A stretch of 47,156 nucleotides of DNA, taken from the NCBI GenBank assembly GCA_045647025.1, contig JAZRLW010000110.1:1-47156 (forward strand), given 5' to 3'. This document shows positions 10,073 to 37,433 of this stretch, piece after piece. This stretch comes from Eubacteriales bacterium. GTDB taxonomy: Bacteria > Bacillota > Clostridia > Oscillospirales > UBA644. The notes beneath the pieces are model-generated. The model was not told the DNA's origin. It saw only the letters and a list, made by a program, of their open reading frames with translations, and ran no database searches. The stretch's first letter is position 1. The number at the start of each line of letters is the position of its first letter. Position numbers and translations under genes: made by a program.

Positions 10073-10109
10073 GGTAGACTGCCATCTAAAGATGTCAGTC
10101 TGCCTTTTT
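10073..10109 (+). terminator. Intrinsic terminator after rny
   Basis: About 13-bp imperfect hairpin (10073-10104; core AGACTG/CAGTCT) followed by T5. Only 24 nt separate it from the hflK start. Confidence 0.7.
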
Positions 10110-10133
10110 ATATACCACAAAAAGGAGAAATAT

Positions 10134-11072
10134 ATGATGCAGAAAAAATGGCTCCACTTCGCGTGGATAATCCCCGTTCTTCTTGTGGTTGCCGTATTCT
10201 TCTTTAATTGCTTTTACAGCATAGGAGAAACCGAAAAGGGCGTAGTTACGACCTTCGGTAAGGTAACGGCAATACAGGACGCGGGTCTTAACTTTAAACT
10301 CCCCGATCCCATTCAGCACGTTGAAAAGGTAGATATGACTACCAGAAAGCTCAGCCTTGGATATACCGAAACCGGCTCCGGCATCGCAATCTCAACGGGA
10401 GATGCAAAAATGATTACGGGTGACTACAACGTCGTTGCCGTAGACTTCTTTATGGAATGGAAGGTTTCTGACCCCCAGAAGTTCCTTTTCAGCTCCGAAG
10501 ACCCCATATCCATACTCTCCAATATTGCTAAGGCCGCAGCCAGAGACGTTATCGGATCCTACGACGTTGATAACGTTCTTACCGACGGTAAGGTGGCTAT
10601 CCAGTCAAGCGTAAAAGAGCTTATGGCAGAAAAGCTTGCAGAATATGATATCGGTATACAGATACTTGAAGTAAAGATCCAGGACGCAGAGCCTCCCACA
10701 CAGGAAGTTATCGCAGCATTCAAGGATGTTGAAACCGCAAAGCAGCAGATGGAAACGGCTATAAACCAGGCAACTGCTTACCAGAACACCGTCATCCCCG
10801 AAGCTAACGCAGAGGCTGACAAGATACTCAAGGATGCTGAAGCGTACAAGCAGGAAAGAATCAATGCCGCAGAGGGTGACGTTGCAAAGTTTAAGGAAAT
10901 GTACGCACAGTACGCCCTTAATCCCGACGTAACCAGAAAACGTCTTTACCTTGAAATGATAGAGGACATTCTCCCCGGAGTTGACCTTTATATAGAAACA
11001 GCTGACGGCAATACCCTTAACGTACTGCCCTTGGACAGCTTTGTAAACGATAAGGAAGGAGGAGCTCAGTAA
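10134..11072 (+). CDS. hflK: SPFH/band-7 protein, FtsH modulator HflK
   Basis: N-terminal TM helix plus SPFH domain. The ATG at 10134 follows SD AGGAGA. The stop overlaps the hflC start (TAATG). Confidence 0.85.
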   Translation: MMQKKWLHFAWIIPVLLVVAVFFFNCFYSIGETEKGVVTTFGKVTAIQDAGLNFKLPDPIQHVEKVDMTTRKLSLGYTETGSGIAISTGDAKMITGDYNVVAVDFFMEWKVSDPQKFLFSSEDPISILSNIAKAAARDVIGSYDVDNVLTDGKVAIQSSVKELMAEKLAEYDIGIQILEVKIQDAEPPTQEVIAAFKDVETAKQQMETAINQATAYQNTVIPEANAEADKILKDAEAYKQERINAAEGDVAKFKEMYAQYALNPDVTRKRLYLEMIEDILPGVDLYIETADGNTLNVLPLDSFVNDKEGGAQ

Positions 11073-11974
11073 TGACAAAGAAGACTAAGATTTCTCTTAT
11101 TATCGCAGGCATAATAGTCGCTCTTGCAGTTATTCTTATCGCCTCCACCGCATACACCGTTGGTGAAGACCAGTACGGTATCGTAAGACAGTTCGGAAAA
11201 GTAGTTTCCATAAAAGATGAAGCAGGTATTTATATCAAGATACCTTTTATGGAGGACGTTTCCTATCTCCCCAAAAATCTTTTGGTTTACGACGTAACAC
11301 CTTCCGACGTACTTACTTCAGATAAAAAAGCGTTGGTAATAGACAGTTACGTAGTATGGAATATAACCGATCCCCTCACCTTCGTTCAGTCCATAGGCAC
11401 CGTTGACGAAATGGAAAGCCGTCTTGATGCGGCCACGTTCAGCGTGGTAAAGAATACCATGGGTACTATGGAACAGACCAGTATCATTCAGTCTGGCGCC
11501 TCCGAAAACAGCCGCAACGAAGTAAACGGCCTTATTACCGAAATGGTTAACCAGCAGGTAACAAGTGAGTACGGCGTTAAGGTAATGTCCATTGAAATCA
11601 AGAAGCTTGACCTTCCCGAGGACAACGAAGCCGCAGTATATGAAAGAATGATTTCTGAAAGACAACAGATGGCCGCAAAGTACATTGCCGAGGGCGAACT
11701 TGAAGCCTCCGTTATAAGAAACGATACAGATAAGCAAGCCGCAATTATTATAAGTGAAGCCGCCGCCGAAGCCGAAAAACTCAAAGGTGAAGGAGAAGCT
11801 GAATATATGAGAATAATTGCTGAAGCTTATGCAACTCCCGACCAGGTGGAATTTTACGAGTTTTACCGATCTCTTGAAGCTATGAGAAAATCTATGGTTT
11901 CTCAGAATAACGAAAAGAGAGTTCTTATCCTTTCTCAGGATTCCTTTATTGCACAGATGTTTATGGGTGAATAA
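11072..11974 (+). CDS. hflC: SPFH/band-7 protein, FtsH modulator HflC
   Basis: N-terminal TM helix plus SPFH domain, translationally coupled to hflK. Confidence 0.85.
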   Translation: MTKKTKISLIIAGIIVALAVILIASTAYTVGEDQYGIVRQFGKVVSIKDEAGIYIKIPFMEDVSYLPKNLLVYDVTPSDVLTSDKKALVIDSYVVWNITDPLTFVQSIGTVDEMESRLDAATFSVVKNTMGTMEQTSIIQSGASENSRNEVNGLITEMVNQQVTSEYGVKVMSIEIKKLDLPEDNEAAVYERMISERQQMAAKYIAEGELEASVIRNDTDKQAAIIISEAAAEAEKLKGEGEAEYMRIIAEAYATPDQVEFYEFYRSLEAMRKSMVSQNNEKRVLILSQDSFIAQMFMGE

Positions 11975-11999
11975 CCCATGGATGAGTAAAACCTATGGA

Positions 12000-12030
12000 G
12001 TAAAGAGCCGTCTTCCTGACGGCTCTTTAC
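12000..12030 (+). terminator. Hairpin terminator after hflC
   Basis: Perfect 13-bp stem GTAAAGAGCCGTC/GACGGCTCTTTAC with a 5-nt loop. The U-tract is poor. Confidence 0.55.
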
Positions 12031-12087
12031 TGATATGTATCTGCAACACAAAAATGTGACTTTTTTATAAATCACCCTGCTAAAGTA

Positions 12088-12116
12088 TTGACAATCGGTT
12101 TTTTTTGTGCTATGAT
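12088..12116 (+). promoter_or_regulatory. Sigma-A promoter of the aromatic amino acid operon
   Basis: TTGACA (12088-12093), 17-nt spacer, TATGAT (12111-12116), with a TG extension at 12108-12109. Confidence 0.7.
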
Positions 12117-12148
12117 ACACTCATAGTAATATAGGAGACGCAAAGGCA

Positions 12149-12220
12149 ATGAAGACCAACATTTTCGCTGCATACTTTTTTTACTTTTACTTTTATTTTG
12201 CATCCGCAACCGAGAAGTAA
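12149..12220 (+). CDS. Phe/Tyr-rich leader peptide (23 aa, MKTNIFAAYFFYFYFYFASATEK)
   Basis: Own translation. SD AGGAGA (12133-12138) lies 10 nt upstream of the ATG. Ten of 23 codons are Phe or Tyr, nine of them consecutive. It sits between the promoter and a terminator upstream of aroF. Confidence 0.6.
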   Translation: MKTNIFAAYFFYFYFYFASATEK

Positions 12221-12282
12221 AAGTGATTTGTGCTGCAAATGTTCGTTAATGTGAACAATGCTCTCTTTCATATTTTGAATGA

Positions 12283-12320
12283 GTTCCGCAGTGATCAATC
12301 ACTGACGGAGCATTTTTTTT
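12283..12320 (+). terminator. Leader (attenuator) terminator upstream of aroF
   Basis: Twelve-bp stem with one bulged A (12283-12294 pairs with 12299-12311), 4-nt loop, then T8 (12313-12320). It ends 38 nt before the aroF ATG. Confidence 0.75.
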
Positions 12321-12358
12321 GTTATAAATAAACCTTAATATATTCGGAGGAAACTAAA

Positions 12359-13366
12359 ATGATTGCGGTACTTAAACATAATGCAACACCCCAGCAACAG
12401 GAAAACCTGATTAATTGGCTCAAGGGTATGAACATCGGTGTTCATGTTTCCGAAGGTGAATACCAGACCGTCCTCGGCCTGATAGGCGACACCTCCAAAA
12501 TAGACATCGACCTTTTGGAAGGTCTTGACGTTATTGAAAGAGTTACAAGAATTACCGAACCCTATAAAAAAGCAAACAGAAAATTCCACCCCGACGATTC
12601 GGTTATCGACGTTGGAGGTGTTAAAATAGGCGGCGGCAACTTTGCCATTATCGCAGGCCCCTGCTCTGTAGAAAGTGAAGAGCAAATAATCGAAGTTGCA
12701 AAAAGAGTAAAGGCCGGAGGCGCTACCCTTCTCCGTGGCGGTGCCTTCAAGCCCAGAACCTCTCCTTACGACTTCCAGGGGCTTAAAGCAGAAGGTATAG
12801 AACTTTTGCTCAAAGCAAAAAAAGAAACAGGACTCCCCATAGTAACCGAAATAATGAATGCCGCCCACCTTCCCCTCTTCGAAGAGGTGGACCTGATTCA
12901 GGTAGGCGCAAGAAATATGCAGAACTTCGAACTTCTTAAGGAACTGGGAAAAACAGACAAACCCATACTCTTAAAGAGAGGTCTTGCAAACACCATAAAA
13001 GAATGGCTTATGAGTGCCGAGTATATTATGGCGGGCGGTAACGAAAAGGTTATCCTCTGCGAAAGAGGTATAAGAACCTATGAGTCATACACCAGAAACA
13101 CTCTGGACATCTCTGCAGTACCCGCACTTCACGAGATCACCCACCTTCCCGTTATCGTTGACCCCTCTCATGCCTGCGGTATAGCACGTATGGTATCACC
13201 TATGGCCTGTGCTGCGGCAGCCTGCGGATCCGATGGTCTTATGATAGAGGTTCACAATAACCCCAAGCTGGCCCTCTGTGACGGTGCTCAGTCCCTTACT
13301 CCCGATCAGTTTGACGACGTAGCTATGAAGGTCAGACAGATACTGGACGTTGTAAAGGGAAATTAG
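12359..13366 (+). CDS. aroF: 3-deoxy-7-phosphoheptulonate (DAHP) synthase, type I-beta, with an N-terminal ferredoxin-like regulatory domain
   Basis: KDO8PS-like DAHPS core (IAGPCSVES, LLRGGAFKPRTSPY, DPSH) preceded by an extra domain of about 75 aa, as in Thermotoga-type DAHPS. Confidence 0.9.
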   Translation: MIAVLKHNATPQQQENLINWLKGMNIGVHVSEGEYQTVLGLIGDTSKIDIDLLEGLDVIERVTRITEPYKKANRKFHPDDSVIDVGGVKIGGGNFAIIAGPCSVESEEQIIEVAKRVKAGGATLLRGGAFKPRTSPYDFQGLKAEGIELLLKAKKETGLPIVTEIMNAAHLPLFEEVDLIQVGARNMQNFELLKELGKTDKPILLKRGLANTIKEWLMSAEYIMAGGNEKVILCERGIRTYESYTRNTLDISAVPALHEITHLPVIVDPSHACGIARMVSPMACAAAACGSDGLMIEVHNNPKLALCDGAQSLTPDQFDDVAMKVRQILDVVKGN

Positions 13367-13393
13367 TATTCCATTTTAAAGGAAGAATTAGTC

Positions 13394-14227
13394 ATGAATA
13401 TCGGTGTAGTAGGCCTCGGTCTTATAGGAGGCTCCCTTGCAAAAAGCGCAAAGAAAAACACAAATCATAAAGTTTTAGGCACAGACAGATCAAAGCCTGT
13501 CCTGGATTACGCTCTGTTAAGCGGTGTTATAGATGGTGAACTAAACCCCAAGGCCTTAAAGGACTGCGATGTGGTTTTTCTTTCCCTCTATCCCGAAGCT
13601 ACGATAAAATATATAGAAGACAACGCAAAGAACTTCAAAAAAGACAGTATAGTTATTGACTGCGCAGGAACGAAAAGAGCTGTCTGCGAAAAGGGCTTTG
13701 CCATTGGGGAAGAAAACGGCTTCCACTTTATAGGTGGCCATCCTATGGCAGGAACCCAATACTCCGGCATTAAATATGCAAAGGACACCATGTTCAAAAA
13801 CGCCTGCTTTGTACTTGTTCCCAAACATGAAGAGGATGTTTACGTTCTCGGCAAAGCCAGAGACGTGATAATAGAAATAGGCTTTGCAAAGATAACCGTC
13901 ATGGATGCCGAAAAGCACGACAGACTCATTGCTTTCAGCTCACAGCTTGCCCACGTGGTTTCAAACGCCTACGTAAAAAGCCCCTCGGCAAACGAGCACA
14001 AGGGAATCTCCGCAGGTAGTTACAAGGATATGACCAGAGTAGCATACCTTAACGAAAACATGTGGACGGAGCTATTTATCGATAACAGTGATAATTTGGT
14101 AAACGAGCTTGATATTCTTATAAAAGAGCTTACCAAATACCGCGATGCCATAAAGGAAAAGGATGCAGACACCCTTCGTCTCCTGCTTAAGGACGGACGA
14201 GAGGCAAAAGAAAGGATAGACTCATGA
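13394..14227 (+). CDS. tyrA: Prephenate dehydrogenase
   Basis: Rossmann motif VVGLGLIGGS and a GGHPMAG motif. The stop overlaps the aroB start (ATGA). Confidence 0.85.
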   Translation: MNIGVVGLGLIGGSLAKSAKKNTNHKVLGTDRSKPVLDYALLSGVIDGELNPKALKDCDVVFLSLYPEATIKYIEDNAKNFKKDSIVIDCAGTKRAVCEKGFAIGEENGFHFIGGHPMAGTQYSGIKYAKDTMFKNACFVLVPKHEEDVYVLGKARDVIIEIGFAKITVMDAEKHDRLIAFSSQLAHVVSNAYVKSPSANEHKGISAGSYKDMTRVAYLNENMWTELFIDNSDNLVNELDILIKELTKYRDAIKEKDADTLRLLLKDGREAKERIDS

Positions 14228-15261
14228 GAACCCTCACAGTCAAAGCCTCAACCCAATACAAAGTCAACATAGAAAACGGCCTTATTGATAGCATCGGTAA
14301 GTATACACGAGAGGTATCTTCGGCAGGTAAGGCTTTTATAGTTTCGGACACAAACGTTTTTCCCCTTTACGGAGAAAGACTTAAAAGAAGCCTTTCCCAA
14401 TACGGATTTGCGATTTCGGAATATATTCTTCCCGCAGGCGAAGCATCAAAAACCCCCGAGAATATGATAAAAATAGTCGAGGCCTGCGCTGAGGCAGGGC
14501 TTACACGAAGCGATCTCCTTGTTGCCCTGGGCGGCGGCGTGATAGGAGATATTACAGGGCTTTCAGCCTCCCTTTACCAGAGAGGAACCGACTTTATACA
14601 GATACCTACTACCCTTTTGGCCACCGTTGACTCCTCAATTGGGGGAAAGACAGCCGTTGACCTCAAGGCTGGCAAAAACCTTTTGGGTGCCTTTTATCAG
14701 CCCATAGCGGTTTTCTGCGACCCAGAAACCCTCAACACTCTTACACCCGAAGATTTCCACGACGGTTGTGCGGAGGTCATAAAGTACGCCGTACTTAAGG
14801 GCGATAGACTTTTGGAACTCGTAAAAGAGGGAATCAAAAAAAATGCCGAGGAAGTAATTGAAATATGCGTAGGCATTAAGCGCGACATTGTAGAAGCCGA
14901 CGAATTTGACAGAGGAGAAAGAAAGCTCCTTAACCTCGGGCATACCATAGGCCACGCCATAGAAAAATCCAGTAATTTTTCCATTACCCACGGAAGCGCG
15001 GTAGCCGCAGGCATGTGCATAATTGCAAGGGCGTGTCTGAAGAAAGGCATTTGCTCTCCCGATTTTCCCAACAGCTTGGAATCACTATGTAAAGCATACA
15101 ACCTGCCCACAGACAGCAATATTTCAGCTGATATTCTTTATTCAGCGGCCGGCTCTGATAAAAAAAGAGAACAGAACAGTTTAACTCTTATTCTCCCCAA
15201 GGATTTCGGCAACTGCATAATGAAGAAAATACAGCTTACCGACCTCAAAGAATACATTTAA
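14224..15261 (+). CDS. aroB: 3-dehydroquinate synthase
   Basis: GGGVIGDITG and the metal-binding region GHTIGHAIE. Confidence 0.9.
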   Translation: MRTLTVKASTQYKVNIENGLIDSIGKYTREVSSAGKAFIVSDTNVFPLYGERLKRSLSQYGFAISEYILPAGEASKTPENMIKIVEACAEAGLTRSDLLVALGGGVIGDITGLSASLYQRGTDFIQIPTTLLATVDSSIGGKTAVDLKAGKNLLGAFYQPIAVFCDPETLNTLTPEDFHDGCAEVIKYAVLKGDRLLELVKEGIKKNAEEVIEICVGIKRDIVEADEFDRGERKLLNLGHTIGHAIEKSSNFSITHGSAVAAGMCIIARACLKKGICSPDFPNSLESLCKAYNLPTDSNISADILYSAAGSDKKREQNSLTLILPKDFGNCIMKKIQLTDLKEYI

Positions 15262-15294
15262 GTATAAGAATTTTAAAGAAAGGATGCTCCAAGG

Positions 15295-16548
15295 ATGATT
15301 GCAAAGGTTTCACCTGTAAAACTTTCGGGACAGATTCAGGCCATTGCCTCAAAATCGTCGGCTCACCGCTTACTTATATGCGCGGCCCTGTCAAATGAAG
15401 AAGTAACCATCCGTTGCAACGGCCTTTCCGAAGACATTATGGCTACCTGCAGATCTCTTGAATCATTGGGAGCAAAAATCCTTCTTAGCGAAGATAAAAT
15501 CCAGATAACACCAATACAAAAAAATATCACGGAAGAGCCCGCCGTACTGGATTGCGGAGAAAGCGGTTCAACTTTAAGGTTTATGCTTCCCGTAGTTGCG
15601 GGACTTGGAAGAAAAGCAATTTTCAAGGCCTCCGGCAGGCTGCCTCAAAGGCCCCTCTCTCCCCTTTACGAAATCCTGGGACAAAAGGGTTGCACCCTCT
15701 CCGAAAAAGGAGTATTTCCCTTTACAGTAGAAGGCAAAGCCCTGGGCGGGGATTATGAAATTCCGGGGAACGTCAGCTCCCAATACATCACCGGATTACT
15801 CCTTATGCTACCCTTGGTTGGCGGTGGCTCGGTAAGGGTAACGGGAGAATTTGAATCCCGCTCCTACGTTGATATGACGGTGTCCGCTATGAGAAAAAGC
15901 GGCATAGACATTAAGGAAAACGACAATTTATATACAGTACCCAATTCCCCCTATACTCTTAAAGACTGCCACGCAGAGGGTGACTGGTCAAACGCCGCAT
16001 TCTGGCTTTCATCAGGAGCATTGGGAAATGGGATAAAAATGACAGGACTTGACCTCGACTCATTACAGGGTGACAAGGAAATCACCACTTTACTTGAACG
16101 GTTCGGTGCAAAGGTGGAAATAGGCGAAGAAATTTCCATATCACCCGCCCCCATGAAGGGAATCAAGATAGATGCAAAGAACATTCCCGACCTTGTTCCC
16201 GTCCTTTCTGTTGTGGCTTGTGCCGCTGAAGGAGAAACTGTAATCTACAACGCATCCCGCTTAAGATTAAAGGAAAGTGACCGAATAGCCACCACGATTG
16301 ACCTCATAACCTCATTGGGTGGCAAAGCAAGAGAAACCGAAGACGGTCTGGTTATAAGTGGCACGGGAGGTCTCTGCGGCGGAAAGGTCAACTCACATAA
16401 CGACCACAGAATTGTAATGGCGGCGGCAGTCGCGTCGAATATATGCAAAACGCCCGTAATTATTGAGGGCGCGGAAGCGAAAAACAAGTCTTATCCCACA
16501 TTCTTCACCCACATGAAAACCTTGGGCGGAAACATAACGGAGGATTAA
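15295..16548 (+). CDS. aroA: 3-phosphoshikimate 1-carboxyvinyltransferase (EPSP synthase)
   Basis: 417 aa with LDCGESGSTLRF and a DHRIVMAAAVA-type C-terminal motif. Confidence 0.9.
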   Translation: MIAKVSPVKLSGQIQAIASKSSAHRLLICAALSNEEVTIRCNGLSEDIMATCRSLESLGAKILLSEDKIQITPIQKNITEEPAVLDCGESGSTLRFMLPVVAGLGRKAIFKASGRLPQRPLSPLYEILGQKGCTLSEKGVFPFTVEGKALGGDYEIPGNVSSQYITGLLLMLPLVGGGSVRVTGEFESRSYVDMTVSAMRKSGIDIKENDNLYTVPNSPYTLKDCHAEGDWSNAAFWLSSGALGNGIKMTGLDLDSLQGDKEITTLLERFGAKVEIGEEISISPAPMKGIKIDAKNIPDLVPVLSVVACAAEGETVIYNASRLRLKESDRIATTIDLITSLGGKARETEDGLVISGTGGLCGGKVNSHNDHRIVMAAAVASNICKTPVIIEGAEAKNKSYPTFFTHMKTLGGNITED

Positions 16549-16549
16549 T

Positions 16550-17623
16550 ATGGCAGCAACTTTTGGAGATAAAATTAAAATTACACTTTTTGGGCAGTCT
16601 CATTCCGAGGCTATTGGTGCCGTGGTTGACGGCGTACCCGCAGGACTGAAAATAGACATGGAAGTCCTTGATAGATTTATGGCGCGCAGGGCTCCAGGCG
16701 GGGAATTTGCCACCAAAAGAAAAGAGGCAGACAAGGTACGATTTATATCCGGATTAGGGCCCGACGGACTCACCTGCGGCGCTCCTATTTGTATGATCAT
16801 AGACAATACCGATGCACGTTCCGCAGATTACGATAAGCTTAAAGCCCTTCCCAGACCTTCTCATTCCGATTACGCCGCCTTTATTAAATACGGCGGACAT
16901 AACGATATCAGAGGCGGAGGACAGTTTTCCGGTAGACTCACCGCCCCCATGTGCGCGGCAGGCTTTATCTGTAAAACCCTGCTTGAACAGAGAGGCGTAA
17001 AGATAATCTCCCATATTTACGAAGTATACGGAGTTCAGGACGAGCATCTGCCCCAGGAAATGCCCTCAAACGAGCTTTTTGAAAAGCTTAGTACAAGCCA
17101 CTTTGCGGTTATTGACGATACAAAAGCAGAACAGATGAAGAATGCTATCCAAGAAGCAGCCGCCACTGCAGATTCGGTAGGAGGAATCACAGAGGTTGGT
17201 ATATACGGACTGGAGCCCGGACTGGGAGAACCCTTCTTTGGAAGCGTGGAAAGCCTTATATCCCAGACCATGTTTGCAGTCCCCGCAGTAAAGGGCATCG
17301 AATTCGGAGCAGGATTTGATTTGGCAAAAATGAAGGGCTCTCAGGCAAATGATCCCTTTATTACCGATGAAGAAGGAAAGGTCGTTCCCAAAACAAACAA
17401 CTGCGGCGGAATTCTTGGCGGTATAACTTCGGGTATGCCCGTAATATTCAGGGCTGTATTTAAGCCCACCCCATCCATAGGAATGGAGCAGGATACTGTA
17501 AATCTCTTGACTAGAGAACCCGAAAAGCTTGCCGTAAAGGGCCGCCACGACCCCTGCATTCTCACAAGAACGCCCTCCGTATGCGAGGCTGCTGCTGCAA
17601 TAGCCATAGTAAACTTAAACTAA
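16550..17623 (+). CDS. aroC: Chorismate synthase
   Basis: GQSHSEAIGAVVDGVPAG and RPSHSDY motifs. Confidence 0.9.
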   Translation: MAATFGDKIKITLFGQSHSEAIGAVVDGVPAGLKIDMEVLDRFMARRAPGGEFATKRKEADKVRFISGLGPDGLTCGAPICMIIDNTDARSADYDKLKALPRPSHSDYAAFIKYGGHNDIRGGGQFSGRLTAPMCAAGFICKTLLEQRGVKIISHIYEVYGVQDEHLPQEMPSNELFEKLSTSHFAVIDDTKAEQMKNAIQEAAATADSVGGITEVGIYGLEPGLGEPFFGSVESLISQTMFAVPAVKGIEFGAGFDLAKMKGSQANDPFITDEEGKVVPKTNNCGGILGGITSGMPVIFRAVFKPTPSIGMEQDTVNLLTREPEKLAVKGRHDPCILTRTPSVCEAAAAIAIVNLN

Positions 17624-17645
17624 CTACAGAAAGAAGATACCTGTC

Positions 17646-18788
17646 ATGGACATGAACGATTACAGAAACGATATAGATAAAATAGACAGAGAAATCGTTG
17701 AACTCTTCAAGAAAAGAATGGATACGGCAAAAAATATTGCCGAATATAAAAAGCAGAACGCTCTCCCTATATATGACGGAGCAAGGGAAAGAGCCCTCCT
17801 GACCAAGGTGAGCGACCTTGCAGGCGAAGAGTATTCCCAGTACACCAGAGTCCTCTTCTCCACCATAATGAATTTGAGCCGGTCCTGCCAGATACAGACA
17901 ACTTCACCCCAAAGCGCTCTTTCCCAGCAGATACAGAAAGCTATCACGACCACCCCTGAGCTTTTTCCTGAAAAAGCCACCGTTGCCTGTCAGGGTGTTG
18001 AGGGGGCATACTCCCAGCTTGCCTGCGAAAAGCTTTTCGCCGTACCCAACATCATGTTCTTCAATAGCTTTGACGGTGTTTTCAAGGCCGTAAATTCAGG
18101 CCTTTGCCGTTACGGTGTACTTCCTCTTGAAAACAGTACCGCAGGCTCGGTAAATAAGGTTTATGACCTCATGTCAAAGTACAAGTTCCACATCGTAAGA
18201 AGTATCCGTTGCAGAATAACTCACGAGCTTCTTGCAAAGTCCGGAACAAATCTCTCCGACATAAAGGAAATCATTTCCCACGAGCAGGCTCTTAACCAGT
18301 GTGCTCAATTCCTTGCAGATCATAAAGACATTAAAATAACAATTTGCGAAAACACCGCCGTCGCAGCAAAGACAGTTGCAGAATCGGGAAGAACCGATAT
18401 TGCAGCTATAGCATCCAGCACCTCCGCAAGACAGTACGGATTAAAGGTTATCGCCTCCGATATTCTCGATAACGGCGGAAACGATACCAGATTTATCTGC
18501 ATTTCCAAGGAGCCCGAGGTATATCCCGGCAGTGACAGAACAAGTATCAAGCTTATTCTCCCCCACCGTCCCGGTTCTTTGTATAATGTGTTGGCAAGAT
18601 TCGCCTCCCTCGGAATTAATATAGTCAAGCTTGAAAGCCGCCCCATCCCCGGCAAGGATTTCGAGTTCATGTTCTACTTCGATATAGGGGTTTCGGTATA
18701 CTCTCCCGCCCTTGCAGAGCTTCTCTGCGAGCTCGAGCACGACGTTGACGAGTTGGTATATCTGGGCAGCTATTCGGAAATAGTATAA
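17646..18788 (+). CDS. pheA: Bifunctional chorismate mutase / prephenate dehydratase with a C-terminal ACT domain
   Basis: N-terminal AroQ-type chorismate mutase helix bundle, prephenate dehydratase core (LPLENSTAGSV) and ACT domain (GSLYNVLARFASLGINIVKLESRP). Confidence 0.9.
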   Translation: MDMNDYRNDIDKIDREIVELFKKRMDTAKNIAEYKKQNALPIYDGARERALLTKVSDLAGEEYSQYTRVLFSTIMNLSRSCQIQTTSPQSALSQQIQKAITTTPELFPEKATVACQGVEGAYSQLACEKLFAVPNIMFFNSFDGVFKAVNSGLCRYGVLPLENSTAGSVNKVYDLMSKYKFHIVRSIRCRITHELLAKSGTNLSDIKEIISHEQALNQCAQFLADHKDIKITICENTAVAAKTVAESGRTDIAAIASSTSARQYGLKVIASDILDNGGNDTRFICISKEPEVYPGSDRTSIKLILPHRPGSLYNVLARFASLGINIVKLESRPIPGKDFEFMFYFDIGVSVYSPALAELLCELEHDVDELVYLGSYSEIV

Positions 18789-18806
18789 GAAGGGACTGTC
18801 CGAAAA

Positions 18807-20027
18807 ATGAAATTTGGTCTTTTAGGCGGAAGGCTGGGACATAGCTTTTCACCGCAAATACACGCTCAGCTGGCGGACTACGAGTACAAACTCTACCCTA
18901 TGCCCGAAAACGAGGTGGAGAGGTGGGTAAGAAATTGCGACCTTAACGGCTTTAACGTAACCATCCCATATAAAGAAAAGGTCTACGCCCTATGTGACGG
19001 ACTCACCGACAGGGCAAAAAAAATAGGCTGTGTAAACACCGTAAAAAAAATGCCTGACGGCAAACTATACGGTGATAACACAGACTATTACGGCTTTAGC
19101 TATATGGTGAAAAAGCTGGGCGTAGAGATAAAAGATAAAAAGGTTCTTGTTATCGGTAGCGGAGGCACGGCAAAGACCGCAACGGCAGTTCTTACCGATA
19201 TGGGAGCCAAAGAAATAGTTATCGTTTCAAGAAAGGATAACACTCCCGAAACACTGAAAAAGCACTCCGATACGGATATATTGGTAAACGCCTCGCCCGT
19301 TGGCATGTATCCAAAGAACGGTGAATCCCCCGTTGACCTTGATTTATTCCCCGATTGCAAGGGAATAATAGACGTTATATACAACCCTTCCCTTACCGAA
19401 CTGCTTATCCAAGGTCAAAAGCGGGGTATTCCCTGCATAAACGGCCTTTCCATGCTGGTTGCCCAAGCTAAAATGGCATGTGAAATCTTCATCGATACAA
19501 ATATTGCAGAGTCGAAAATTGACCGTATCACCAAGGAAATAGAAAAGCAGACCAAGAATCTTATTCTCGTTGGTATGCCGGGCTGCGGAAAGACAACCGC
19601 AGGTAAAAATCTCGCCCTGATGACAGGGAAAGAGTTCATTGACTCGGACGAAGTGATAAAGAAAGCCGAGAACAGAAGCCCGTCAGAAATTATCAAGGCT
19701 GAAGGGGAAAAGGCATTCCGTGAAATAGAAACCCGAGTTCTTAAGGAAGTATGTAAAGGAAGCGGAAAAATAATCGCTACGGGCGGAGGCTCGGTAACAA
19801 TTCCCGAAAATCATGATATTATGCGCCAAAACGGTACGGTTATATTCCTTAAGCGCCCCATTGAAAGGCTGGACAAAAGCGACAGACCTCTTTCAATAGA
19901 TCTGCCTGCTCTTTACAAAAAACGCCTTCCCCTGTATGAGGAATTTTCGGATTCAGAAGTAGAGGGAAGAGAAAGTCCAACAGAAACTGCGGCGGCGATT
20001 TTGGCCGCTTGGGAGGAAAAGGTATGA
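18807..20027 (+). CDS. aroE/aroK: Fusion of shikimate dehydrogenase (N-terminal) and shikimate kinase (C-terminal)
   Basis: AroE motifs (GHSFSPQIH, NVTIPYK, GSGGTAK) followed by a P-loop kinase (GMPGCGKTT). Confidence 0.85.
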   Translation: MKFGLLGGRLGHSFSPQIHAQLADYEYKLYPMPENEVERWVRNCDLNGFNVTIPYKEKVYALCDGLTDRAKKIGCVNTVKKMPDGKLYGDNTDYYGFSYMVKKLGVEIKDKKVLVIGSGGTAKTATAVLTDMGAKEIVIVSRKDNTPETLKKHSDTDILVNASPVGMYPKNGESPVDLDLFPDCKGIIDVIYNPSLTELLIQGQKRGIPCINGLSMLVAQAKMACEIFIDTNIAESKIDRITKEIEKQTKNLILVGMPGCGKTTAGKNLALMTGKEFIDSDEVIKKAENRSPSEIIKAEGEKAFREIETRVLKEVCKGSGKIIATGGGSVTIPENHDIMRQNGTVIFLKRPIERLDKSDRPLSIDLPALYKKRLPLYEEFSDSEVEGRESPTETAAAILAAWEEKV

Positions 20028-20464
20028 AATTTCTTATTATAAACGGCCCTAATCTCAATATGCTGGGCATAAGAGAACCCGAAGTATACGGAAACAGAAC
20101 CTTCAAAGACTTGGAAGGCCTTATAGTATCGGCTTGTCACGAGGCAGACGTAGACTACAAGCTTTTTCAGTCAAATTGCGAGGGCGAAATAGTAACCGAA
20201 ATACAGAAGGCCTACGAAACATTTGATGGCATCGTAATTAATCCTGCCGCCTATACCCACACAAGCGTAGCCATTCTCGATGCCCTGAAGGCCGTGGGAA
20301 TCCCCACCGTGGAAGTCCACATATCCGACATTTCCGCCCGCGAGGAATTCCGCAAATTTTCCTATGTATCTCTTTATGCTGAAAAAACCATAGCAGGACA
20401 CGGCTTCGAAGGATACAGGGAAGCCATCCTTTACCTTAAAGAAAAACTTGATTCTATTTCTTGA
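20024..20464 (+). CDS. aroQ: Type II 3-dehydroquinate dehydratase
   Basis: [23 protein letters not shown] is typical of AroQ. The ATG at 20024 overlaps the stop of the upstream gene (ATGA). Confidence 0.9.
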   Translation: [146 protein letters not shown]

Positions 20465-36100: not shown

Positions 36101-36132
36101 TAGAAATGTACCATTTGTAATGCGTGCATAAC

Positions 36133-36162
36133 AAAACGGACACAATATATTGTGTCCGTTTT
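36133..36162. terminator. Bidirectional intrinsic terminator
   Basis: AAAACGGACACAAT/ATTGTGTCCGTTTT perfect palindrome (about 13 bp) with A/T runs on both sides. Confidence 0.7.
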
Positions 36163-36386
36163 GATAAATATTGGGTTTTTATCTATATATTGATGCCGCC
36201 AAACAAATTGAACTTTTTTGTCTTGTGCAAAATGACCAAAAATTATCTTTCAAAAATACTTTACAATCATTTCGCAAAACCACCGCAAATTGTGGAAAAA
36301 CACCCTTGTTTTCCTATCACGAGCAAAAGATTTTTTGGCAATATATACATCTTTTTTGACATTTTTGAAACTAAAAGAGCCGCTCT

Positions 36387-37388
36387 CTACTCCCACACAC
36401 CAAGCTTTACCAGCTTCGCATGAACAACCACTCGAACGTCCTTATCGTAAGACTTACAAGTGGACAAAGTGAGTATCCTATCGTCGGCGGTAAACTCAAA
36501 TTTTTCAAAAGCCGCTATCTCGTTTTTGTTCTGCAGAGAATTGCAAAATTCAACAAACACTACCGGATCCGAAAAGGCAGTTCGGATATAATTATACATA
36601 GAGGCAGTCTCTGCCTCCACACTGGTCTCATACCAAGCAAAAATCTGCCATACGGTATCTTCGTTAACAGTTTTAACATATACGTAATGATTGGATCTAT
36701 CATTATACCAGCTCTTTTTAACATCGAGGTACTTCAGCCCACCAAACATATTGTCACTTCGAGCGTGGCCATAAAGTATAGTGTTGTAGTTGGAAGACAA
36801 CTGCTCGGCGTCGTTTCTGTAATCTACAAACACCCAGCCGTTTATATTCTCTTCTTTGTCAAAATTATGGCTGAGATAATACTCGTTATCCCCGCTGTAA
36901 ACTATAGGGAGATCTATGGGCAACCCGGCAACCTTCCCCGTAGAATCGGAGAAATTAAACCAACCCACGGTATCCCCGTTGCGTTGTTTTACAGTATCGA
37001 GAGGCGCCTGCAAGAACTCAACCGTCTCTCCCACCTCATCATACACTATCCTAAATGTACGACGAGGTGTTTCATCCTCATCGGAAGACACCTGTCCTTC
37101 GGAAGAGTGCCCCTCATCCTCTTTTTTATCGTCGGGCAAGGATGGAGCAAGAATAACGTCCTCATTATATTCAAGACGCGCATCCTGAAATTCACTTACA
37201 ACTTTGTCCGTAGCCGCATTTTCTACCAGATCCTTCACAATGTTATACGCAGAAAAAAGGAATACGGAAGCACAAACAGCAAGAACAAAAAACGAGATGA
37301 CCTTATGCCGGGGCTTTTTTCTTGTGTCAGCAGATGGCGACGCAACGTCAATACGCTGCTCGGGCTTATTAGCTTTCATGTCCGGCAT
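36387..37388 (-). CDS. srtB: Class B sortase (N-terminal TM anchor, acidic linker)
   Basis: DNEYYLSHNF, NTILYGH (catalytic His), TLSTC (catalytic Cys) and DVRVVVHAKL (catalytic Arg). The ATG at 37388 has better SD spacing than the one at 37397. Confidence 0.8.
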   Translation of the reverse strand: MPDMKANKPEQRIDVASPSADTRKKPRHKVISFFVLAVCASVFLFSAYNIVKDLVENAATDKVVSEFQDARLEYNEDVILAPSLPDDKKEDEGHSSEGQVSSDEDETPRRTFRIVYDEVGETVEFLQAPLDTVKQRNGDTVGWFNFSDSTGKVAGLPIDLPIVYSGDNEYYLSHNFDKEENINGWVFVDYRNDAEQLSSNYNTILYGHARSDNMFGGLKYLDVKKSWYNDRSNHYVYVKTVNEDTVWQIFAWYETSVEAETASMYNYIRTAFSDPVVFVEFCNSLQNKNEIAAFEKFEFTADDRILTLSTCKSYDKDVRVVVHAKLVKLGVWE

Positions 37389-37433
37389 AAAGGTCATCCT
37401 TTCTTGAAAAATTTTCAGTTGTAAAAGGCAAAA

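Follow-up and report, generated by a model that had tools for sequence, protein, structure and literature searches.

Known leader-peptide systems and the aroF leader

In Firmicutes, genes for aromatic amino acids are usually controlled by T-boxes or TRAP, which sense tRNA or tryptophan (Trp). The subject of this text is the leader preceding the aroF operon in a 47,156-nucleotide (nt) stretch of DNA from an Eubacteriales bacterium (Clostridia, Oscillospirales; assembly GCA_045647025.1, contig JAZRLW010000110.1), the whole of which is referred to as the window. The leader carries a small open reading frame (ORF) rich in phenylalanine (Phe, F) and tyrosine (Tyr, Y) codons, followed by an intrinsic terminator. 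Judged from its sequence, it is most probably a ribosome-mediated (leader-peptide) transcription attenuator of the aromatic amino acid operon, a reading to which we would assign a probability of roughly 0.85. Translation of the mini-ORF, stalling of the ribosome, a kinetic competition between RNA structures and the sensing of both Phe and Tyr are what we infer within this reading. A preliminary description of the locus had already likened it to the pheL/trpL type of attenuator, and this likeness is supported by the conservation of the element, by compensatory changes in its first hairpin (P1) and in its terminator, by a covarying antiterminator and by a switch between predicted folds.

Among the closest described systems are the pheL-pheA and pheM-pheST leaders of the Gammaproteobacteria (Rfam family Phe_leader). 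They have in common with the window leader an ORF with Phe codons in segment 1 and hairpins between segments 1:2, 2:3 and 3:4; they also share the intrinsic terminator in front of a Phe biosynthesis gene and the sensing of charged tRNA by stalling, which is proposed here. Different from pheL are the absence of an Rfam match, the host (a Clostridium-class Firmicute) and the codons, with Tyr and Phe alternating instead of Phe only. Furthermore, the target is the common pathway with the Phe and Tyr branches (eight genes) and not pheA alone. With T-box and TRAP systems the leader shares the decision between terminator and antiterminator in the 5' leader and, in the case of the T-box, the sensing of tRNA charging, but here this sensing is proposed to proceed through translation. 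A cmscan search of the whole window against Rfam 15 gave no match at gathering score; at E<10, only chance matches (snoZ165, Ysr100 and similar) were present in 11950-12450, and no T-box, Phe_leader or leu-phe leader. The scan and the leader sequence thus agree with the earlier remark that there is neither a T-box nor a GAG/UAG triplet array, and none of the known Rfam leaders matches.

To our knowledge, aroR of Corynebacterium glutamicum is the only aroF leader peptide that has been tested experimentally. For aroR-aroF (Neshat et al. 2014, as summarised in PMC11802643), read-through is reported to be enhanced under Phe limitation, with no effect of Tyr; a C. glutamicum aroF leader peptide with Phe-Tyr-Phe has been predicted (PMC4046766). 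Both leaders have a Phe/Tyr leader peptide directly upstream of aroF, the gene for 3-deoxy-D-arabinoheptulosonate 7-phosphate (DAHP) synthase. Compared by description only, aroR differs in belonging to the Actinobacteria, in having a Phe-Tyr-Phe triplet where runs of up to nine occur here, and in length and composition. A second relative in kind is uORFC-13-1, a predicted upstream ORF (uORF) in front of aroF, with 24 representatives from Acholeplasma and from environmental sequences without assignment (Brewer et al. 2021; PMC8632094). Its description lists a promoter, a ribosome-binding site, a start codon and a stretch rich in U that encodes "at least one" Phe; it adjoins an intrinsic terminator, has one further paired element and is proposed to act by attenuation dependent on ribosome speed (PMC8632094). 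The window fits this published description, which is the sole basis of the comparison, in its U-rich Phe-coding uORF, aroF and terminator, but the description is without Tyr codons, an antiterminator or Clostridia. The small size of that family (24 sequences, none from Clostridia) argues indirectly against its identity with the window leader. The mechanism class is a textbook one, and what would be new is the leader family. Nothing found in the literature describes an aroF leader family of Oscillospiraceae or a leader in which Tyr and Phe alternate.

Leaders that respond to several amino acids are known from E. coli: in thr (threonine and isoleucine) and ilvGMEDA (isoleucine, leucine and valine), shortage of any one of them relieves termination. 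These leaders likewise combine codons for more than one amino acid; they differ in amino acids and hosts and have no sequence relation to the window leader. A leu/phe leader of Lactococcus is contained in Rfam. Histidine leader peptides have been reported from the B. cereus group, Peptostreptococcaceae and Erysipelotrichales (PMC2965389, PMC9413887), and a leucine-rich attenuator peptide is described for S. aureus ilv-leu (PMC5794164). Such Firmicute leaders are examples of classical leader-peptide attenuation beside T-boxes, but they concern other amino acids and operons and none is an Oscillospiraceae aro leader. The preliminary description had called a leader-peptide attenuator unusual for Firmicutes. 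This was a fair remark, yet overstated: for Bacillus, S. aureus, the C. difficile group, Erysipelotrichales and Acholeplasma, leader-peptide attenuators are either on record or have been predicted.

A family of Phe/Tyr-rich leaders upstream of aroF

The leader ORF and its signals are the following:

12149-12220 (+): leader ORF of 23 codons plus TAA (ATG at 12149, TAA at 12218-12220), peptide MKTNIFAAYFFYFYFYFASATEK
12173-12199 (+): regulatory codon run Y F F Y F Y F Y F, proposed stalling site
12133-12138 (+): Shine-Dalgarno (SD) sequence AGGAGA, 10 nt ahead of the leader ATG
12088-12093 (+): -35 hexamer TTGACA of the predicted leader and aro operon promoter, from the sequence
12108-12116 (+): extended -10 element TGcTATGAT, with the -10 hexamer TATGAT at 12111-12116 and TG at 12108-12109

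The peptide contains six F and four Y residues, nine of which are consecutive (codons 9-17) and encoded by TAC TTT TTT TAC TTT TAC TTT TAT TTT. SD, ORF, aromatic residues and their uninterrupted run are thus all present as first described. When both strands were scanned, this was the only mini-ORF in the window with 8/8 aromatic codons. In the nearest relative (L136), the leader peptide is MNHIVFAISYFYFYFYFAKATEK.

Related loci were collected as the best 80 of more than 593 AroF relatives, with one genome per GTDB species and the AroF of the window as query. AroF identities in this set are 67-78 %, and 78 loci are informative, two being cut by a contig end. Its cultured members belong to the Oscillospiraceae or Eubacteriales; carriers of the leader among them are Sporobacter termitidis DSM 10068 (L038), Angelakisella massiliensis (L051), Flintibacter faecis BX5 (L062), Pseudoflavonifractor sp. 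AF19-9AC (L071) and Hominicoprocola fusiformis (L011). An ORF, P1 over the F/Y codons and a terminator, applied as strict criteria, were found together in 59 loci, which with the window form a set of 60 leaders; unless stated otherwise, the family-wide values below refer to it. The covariance model built on this set, R1, gives the window, itself part of the training set, 98.4 bits. Among loci kept out of training, it also matches 8 from genomes, 9 from metagenomes and 10 from close relatives, with scores of 42-103 bits (E <= 4e-6), and it has no match in seven leaderless aroF loci. In total, 67 of the 78 informative loci match R1, three more have an F/Y ORF with a differently shaped terminator, seven are leaderless and one is ambiguous. 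Comparison of upstream regions, as had been suggested, shows F/Y-rich mini-ORF and terminator occurring together in 67-70 of 78 loci.

The conserved element consists of an SD sequence, an ATG, the F/Y-rich mini-ORF, a long P1 hairpin over the F/Y codons and an intrinsic terminator. In most loci the mini-ORF lies 80-290 nt upstream of aroF (for example MKRNIFAAEYFYFYFINKS, MKSTLFAAAYFFYFFFYF..., MLCKTNATAYSFFYFYFYFNEK), and a hairpin with a U-run is situated between it and aroF in the homologous loci. Scanning metagenomes for the P1 pattern gave 120 matches, about a dozen of which are true members; all true members with downstream sequence are located ahead of aroF. Relatives with AroF 80-98 % identical retain both the terminator arm CCGCAGUGA and the run of F/Y codons; they were drawn from a protein search whose listing was confined to proteins with 75 % identity or more. 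Promoter and SD are alignable where AroF is 84-98 % identical, with the -35 element present over the same range and the extended -10 also kept in the close-relative alignment. In the window, the promoter has a spacer of 17 nt and a score of 11/12 in a promoter scan; the coordinates first given for TTGACA-17-TATGAT are borne out by the sequence, and the scan adds the TG of the extended -10, which had gone unmentioned. Transcription probably starts near 12123, as judged from the promoter position.

The leaderless loci (L004, L005, L009, L034, L056, L060 and L076) have no F/Y leader, no R1 match and no T-box upstream of aroF, which is preceded by a plain promoter or by an adjacent upstream gene. 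In L009, a T-box is present about 6 kb downstream, at 10375-10616. In nine related loci without an evident F/Y leader, no T-box was found upstream of aroF. Some loci with an Oscillospiraceae-type aroF operon (L006, L031, L068, L074 and several under the label Lachnospiraceae) are found in metagenome-assembled genomes labelled Treponemataceae, Thermoguttaceae, Alloprevotella, Lentisphaerae or Lachnospiraceae. The four named ones have an R1 match (L006, L031 and L074 as training loci, L068 as a held-out one), and the odd labels probably reflect errors of binning or labelling rather than horizontal transfer.

The mini-ORF bears the marks of a translated frame. Its run contains no stop codon in any of the 60 leaders, and an SD-like 4-mer is found at -4 to -18 in 47 of them, at a median spacing of 10 nt. 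These marks bear on the idea that the same three-hairpin switch is driven by a TRAP- or PyrR-like protein, by uncharged tRNA or by a small ligand, the mini-ORF being a by-product of a U/A-rich P1. Covariation of P1, antiterminator and terminator, as described below, would fit any antitermination switch, and RNA pairing alone would also constrain UACUUU repeats. Nevertheless, such a non-ribosomal switch is very unlikely. An ATG-initiated ORF with an SD-like sequence is present in the F/Y frame in about 90 % of loci, but an upstream ATG occurs in the other two frames in 6/60 and 7/60 leaders only. F-to-Y and synonymous changes preserve aromatic identity, 88 % of the run codons being F or Y against 41 % expected from shuffled nucleotides. 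Finally, there is no T-box or other Rfam match, no TRAP-type triplet array in the leader and no linked regulator gene around the operon.

Terminated leaders in other bacteria can have second roles, and the composition of the peptide is conserved. It could therefore be imagined that the product of the mini-ORF is a hydrophobic micropeptide with a function of its own, or that the terminated transcript of about 200 nt acts in trans as a small RNA, with the hairpins being ordinary mRNA structure. This is extremely unlikely. Peptide length (17-63 amino acids (aa)), C-terminus and stop position are free to vary, conservation being confined to the F/Y run and to the parts of the RNA that pair, and in none of the 60 leaders is the stop codon placed within the terminator. 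Such a constant run in a peptide of variable length, C-terminus and stop is the pattern of a regulatory leader and not of a functional peptide. In addition, an exact-sequence look-up of the window peptide gave no entry in a collection of 15 billion proteins, the element is always immediately 5' of aroF, and a peptide function would leave unexplained why segment 2 covaries with the loop of the terminator.

The +2 frame of the UACUUU repeats encodes poly-leucine (70 % leucine over the 60 loci), and it is in this frame that an ATG occurs in 7/60. Frequent frameshifting has been reported on E. coli pheL (PMC3082878), and by analogy slippage on the U-rich F/Y runs might be worth considering.

Alternative pairings and the predicted switch

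Downstream of the leader start, the RNA contains the following structural elements, of which P1, the antiterminator and the terminator would be mutually exclusive:

12167-12236 (+): hairpin P1 (segments 1:2, anti-antiterminator), -24.3 kcal/mol in minimum-energy folds
12224-12236 (+): segment 2 core, 5' strand of the candidate antiterminator and part of the 3' strand of P1; duplex -10.5 kcal/mol
12240-12257 (+): spacer hairpin B, 6 bp, from folds; possible extension 12235-12237/12259-12261
12263-12283 (+): small spacer hairpin C, enclosed by the antiterminator helix, from folds
12283-12311 (+): intrinsic terminator (segments 3:4), 12 bp, bulged A12305, loop UCAA, -17.7 kcal/mol
12288-12297 (+): segment 3, 3' strand of the candidate antiterminator, comprising the distal 5' arm and loop of the terminator; from duplex and constrained folds
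12313-12320 (+): U-tract T8, after one A, predicted site of a premature 3' end

P1 consists of the pairs 12167-12168/12235-12236 and 12170-12174/12229-12233 and a 14-bp core, 12181-12194/12213-12226, with the F/Y codons in its 5' strand and the leader stop codon in its 3' strand. The core pairing had been noticed before; it belongs to the minimum-energy fold, where it is extended outward. A second hairpin, first placed at 12235-12261, appears in the fold as hairpin B with its extension. The GUUC/GAAC core of B is retained in relatives with AroF 90-98 % identical, hairpin C is not conserved beyond close relatives, and the whole spacer is not conserved family-wide. The terminator, too, was correctly recognized as a 12-bp stem with T8, 38 nt before the aroF ATG at 12359; a simple terminator scan missed it solely because of the bulged A12305.

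For P1 and the terminator, the evolutionary evidence is considerable. The P1 helices are 70-80 % paired over the 60 sequences, and 11 of the 14 core pairs have changed in both partners; the RNAalifold consensus of the terminator has 10 pairs, all with compensatory changes (10/10), and 82.6 % of its cells in the alignment are paired. On alignment A1 (MAFFT, 60 leaders), P1 and terminator together are 75.6 % paired, as compared to 37-52 % when the partners are slid by 1-3 columns. Double changes occur in 218 of their cells (88 in shuffles), and their covariation score is 0.36 as compared to 0.21, a value as high being reached in 0/500 shuffles. Compared to dinucleotide shuffles, the leader fold has z-scores of -5.0 and -5.9, with 0/200 shuffles as good.

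The antiterminator would be formed by 12224-12236 and 12288-12297, which we regard, from the sequence, as a real candidate. Its pairs are 12232-12236 (GCUGC) with 12288-12292 (GCAGU) and 12224-12228 (UGAUU) with 12293-12297 (GAUCA), that is 10 bp with a 3-nt bulge and -10.5 kcal/mol in the window. The first strand is common to P1 and antiterminator, the second to antiterminator and terminator. Complementarity is also visible at the level of the consensus, between the 3' strand of P1 (AAGUAARAGUGAUUUKUGCUGC) and the terminator 5' arm and loop (CYGCAGUGAAW), and lineages differ by matched changes: AGCGAUUUGUGCUGCA with AGCUGCACGGAAUCGC in L018, UUCUUUGUGUUGCUG with AGGCGGCACGAAGGC in L048, GGUAAUUUGUGAUGCAA with AUGCGGCACAGGUUAC in L052, UAGCGUUUCGUGCUGCA with GGCUGCACGAGAGGCU in L057 and UUAGUUUUGCUGUA with CGCAGUAAAAUUAC in L070.

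This covariation was evaluated without an alignment, by comparing over the 60 loci the duplex energy of segment 2 with its own terminator 5' arm and loop and with the 59 foreign ones. Own partners give -13.9 and foreign partners -10.6 kcal/mol (z = -9.4, p < 2e-4). With alignment-defined segments z is -8.4, and with near-duplicates removed it is -7.7. The signal sits in the distal arm and loop of the terminator (z = -9.8), which is the part that the terminator itself does not constrain. As positive controls, the same comparison of own and foreign partners gives z = -15.5 for P1 and z = -24.6 for the terminator; the other controls stay flat, namely reversed segment 2 (z -1.7 and -1.3), sequence upstream of the ORF (z +0.9), the spacer (z +2.1) and segment 2 against the terminator 3' arm (z -0.4).

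Other pairings were considered as well. The antiterminator first suggested, 12250-12256 with 12283-12290, has to be abandoned: no fold, whether free or constrained, contains it, and it lies in the spacer that is not conserved. Two inverted repeats that would sequester the terminator 3' arm, I3 (12254-12263/12308-12317) and I4 (12222-12228/12297-12303), were rejected, as segment 2 has no preference for its own 3' arm in the control just mentioned.

The effect of a ribosome was simulated by blocking a 33-nt footprint on any of four F/Y codon positions. When the nascent RNA of the window, up to 12298, is unblocked, it folds into P1; when blocked, at all four positions, the 10-bp antiterminator becomes the minimum-energy fold. 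Across the family, a stalled ribosome leads to an antiterminator of 5 bp or more in 45/60 loci (median 11.5 bp), as compared to 21/60 without one (median 0), and P1 forms without a ribosome in 58/60. Folding the leader with and without the F/Y codons masked, a check proposed at the outset, thus gives the change from P1 to antiterminator in the window and in 45/60 loci.

Several results weigh against the attenuator reading. On the gappy alignment A1, RNAalifold recovered the terminator only and not P1. A column-wise count of the antiterminator in the register of the window gave 62.5 % paired on A1, a value reached in 80/500 shuffles, with no covariation beyond shuffles. This lack of a column-wise signal is ascribed to the register and loop length, which differ between lineages; the alignment-free test was used in its place, and the covariation support for the antiterminator comes from that test only. 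In the window itself, the antiterminator is modest (z = -0.9 versus shuffles, rank 37/60 versus foreign terminators). In relatives with AroF 80-98 % identical, segment 2 (GUGAUUUGUGCUGC) is invariant, bar one G-to-C change in L205 (84 %), and among the closest relatives it stays the same although the terminator loop changes. Their distal antiterminator half keeps 4-5 of 5 pairs, partly G-U, and their duplexes range from -7.8 to -11.7 kcal/mol. Moreover, with the full terminator present, the window folds at -28.1 kcal/mol, as compared to -17.8 with the antiterminator enforced, and the terminator is still the minimum-energy fold under a stalled ribosome in 54/60 loci. As the terminator wins at equilibrium in all states, the decision would have to be kinetic, that is co-transcriptional. 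Classical attenuators are likewise kinetic; in trp, the 2:3 and 3:4 pairings have about -12 and about -20 kcal/mol, respectively.

On this basis, the following sequence of events can be proposed for the leader-peptide attenuator. The RNA would start at about 12123 and choose between P1, antiterminator and terminator, where P1 is the pairing of segment 1 (the alanine and F/Y codons, 12167-12194) with segment 2 (12213-12236). When Phe-tRNA and Tyr-tRNA are plentiful, the ribosome would pass the nine F/Y codons and reach the stop codon at 12218-12220, within segment 2. It would then cover segment 2, or it would depart and P1 would re-form. From the usual footprint size, a terminating ribosome at this stop codon is expected to cover most of 12224-12236. 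Segment 3 would thereby be free, the terminator would form and RNA polymerase would halt near 12320. If either charged tRNA is scarce, the ribosome would stall in 12173-12199, covering segment 1 and leaving segment 2 exposed; this could capture segment 3 as it emerges, so that no terminator forms and aroF through aroQ are transcribed. Without translation, P1 would form and transcription would terminate.

The alternation of Tyr and Phe codons predicts an OR gate, in which shortage of either charged tRNA relieves termination. It could also be imagined that the attenuator senses a single amino acid, most likely Phe, the Tyr codons having a structural role (UAC pairs with GUA in P1). Such a restriction is reminiscent of C. 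glutamicum, whose Phe-Tyr-Phe leader is reported to have answered Phe limitation and not Tyr (PMC11802643), and UUU is the most numerous aromatic codon, outnumbering every other one (252/555). Phe-only sensing is nonetheless doubtful. Tyr makes up 48 % of the run codons; 59/60 leaders have at least two F and at least two Y codons, with only six Trp codons in total; and Tyr-dominated lineages exist (YYYYFYY in L002, YYYYYYF in L077). Furthermore, the operon includes tyrA, and by the multivalent principle known from the thr and ilv leaders, a ribosome should stall whenever a charged tRNA needed for the run is in short supply. The median longest F/Y run across the leaders is five codons, and the longest is nine.

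The regulated operon, its surroundings and the possible reach of the control

The transcription unit behind the leader is:

12359-20464 (+): operon aroF-tyrA-aroB-aroA-aroC-pheA-aroE/K-aroQ, eight genes, assigned with Pfam

The product of pheA has the domains CM-PDT-ACT, and no trp genes are present in the operon. The Pfam assignments thus confirm that it makes Phe and Tyr, as was first concluded. The same gene order is conserved behind the leader in related loci. At the N terminus of AroF (12359-13366), residues 1-67 form a ferredoxin-like regulatory domain (PF18152). Its counterpart in the enzyme of Thermotoga maritima is a binding site for Phe or Tyr and shuts the active site (PMC5526877). 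The presence of a domain of this Phe/Tyr-binding type makes a two-level feedback by the same end products plausible: by analogy, the same two amino acids may act on the AroF enzyme and, via their tRNAs, on transcription.

With some reserve, we lean towards a wider proposal, namely that these leaders constitute an undescribed family of dual Phe/Tyr-sensing attenuators across the Oscillospiraceae-type Clostridia. They would be the main transcriptional control of the whole aro supra-operon in Clostridia that are dominant in gut and rumen, replacing the T-box or TRAP expected for Firmicutes, with the loop as a co-evolving, lineage-specific "address" and with an F:Y ratio that is perhaps tuned to operon content. 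If so, leader-peptide attenuation, which is usually taught as proteobacterial, would be the standard aromatic control in gut and rumen Oscillospiraceae and their relatives, a large order of ecological importance, and a second level of control would be added to an AroF with the PF18152 domain. With some 70 variants at the level of species, in which P1, antiterminator and terminator covary, the family would provide a data set for the evolution of such switches, mini-ORFs missed by genome annotation would be flagged, and a compact Phe/Tyr-responsive part would be available for engineering anaerobes. No principle is changed by the finding.

In operons without tyrA beside aroF (L035, L062, L071 and L048), the leaders are richer in Phe, with Y/(F+Y) of 0.25 versus 0.46 in 45 others (Mann-Whitney p = 0.003). 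With n=4, of which three are close relatives, this trend is suggestive only and is not relied on. Related metagenome loci (L149 and L178) have similar leaders, yet tyrA is present.

The aroE/K gene (18807-20027, +) is one ORF of 406 aa combining a Shikimate_dh_N part with a complete shikimate kinase domain; the NAD-domain match of the shikimate dehydrogenase part is a short one only. This aroE-aroK fusion is found in many of the related operons. The start codon of aroQ is TTG, and the gene overlaps the fusion ORF by 19 nt. Among near-identical AroF homologues, P0007 (573 aa), P0011 (485 aa) and P0051 (427 aa) are far longer than 335 aa and are probably gene-calling artefacts, resulting from fusion with a neighbouring ORF or from a wrong start.

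A possible second copy of the leader at 36127-36260 (-), a model match of 21 bits, was rejected as an ordinary intrinsic terminator without F/Y ORF or P1; it consists of ACGGACACAAUAUAUUGUGUCCG followed by a U-run and lies downstream of the gene at 36387-37397 (-). Upstream of the leader, two tandem SPFH/Band-7 genes (10092-11974, +) are closed by a hairpin of their own at 11998-12030 (AAAGAGCCGUC...GACGGCUCUUU). The same pair precedes the leader in L201 and L202 (AroF 96-98 % identical), and in L203 (AroF 90 % identical) its place is taken by an APH-family gene.

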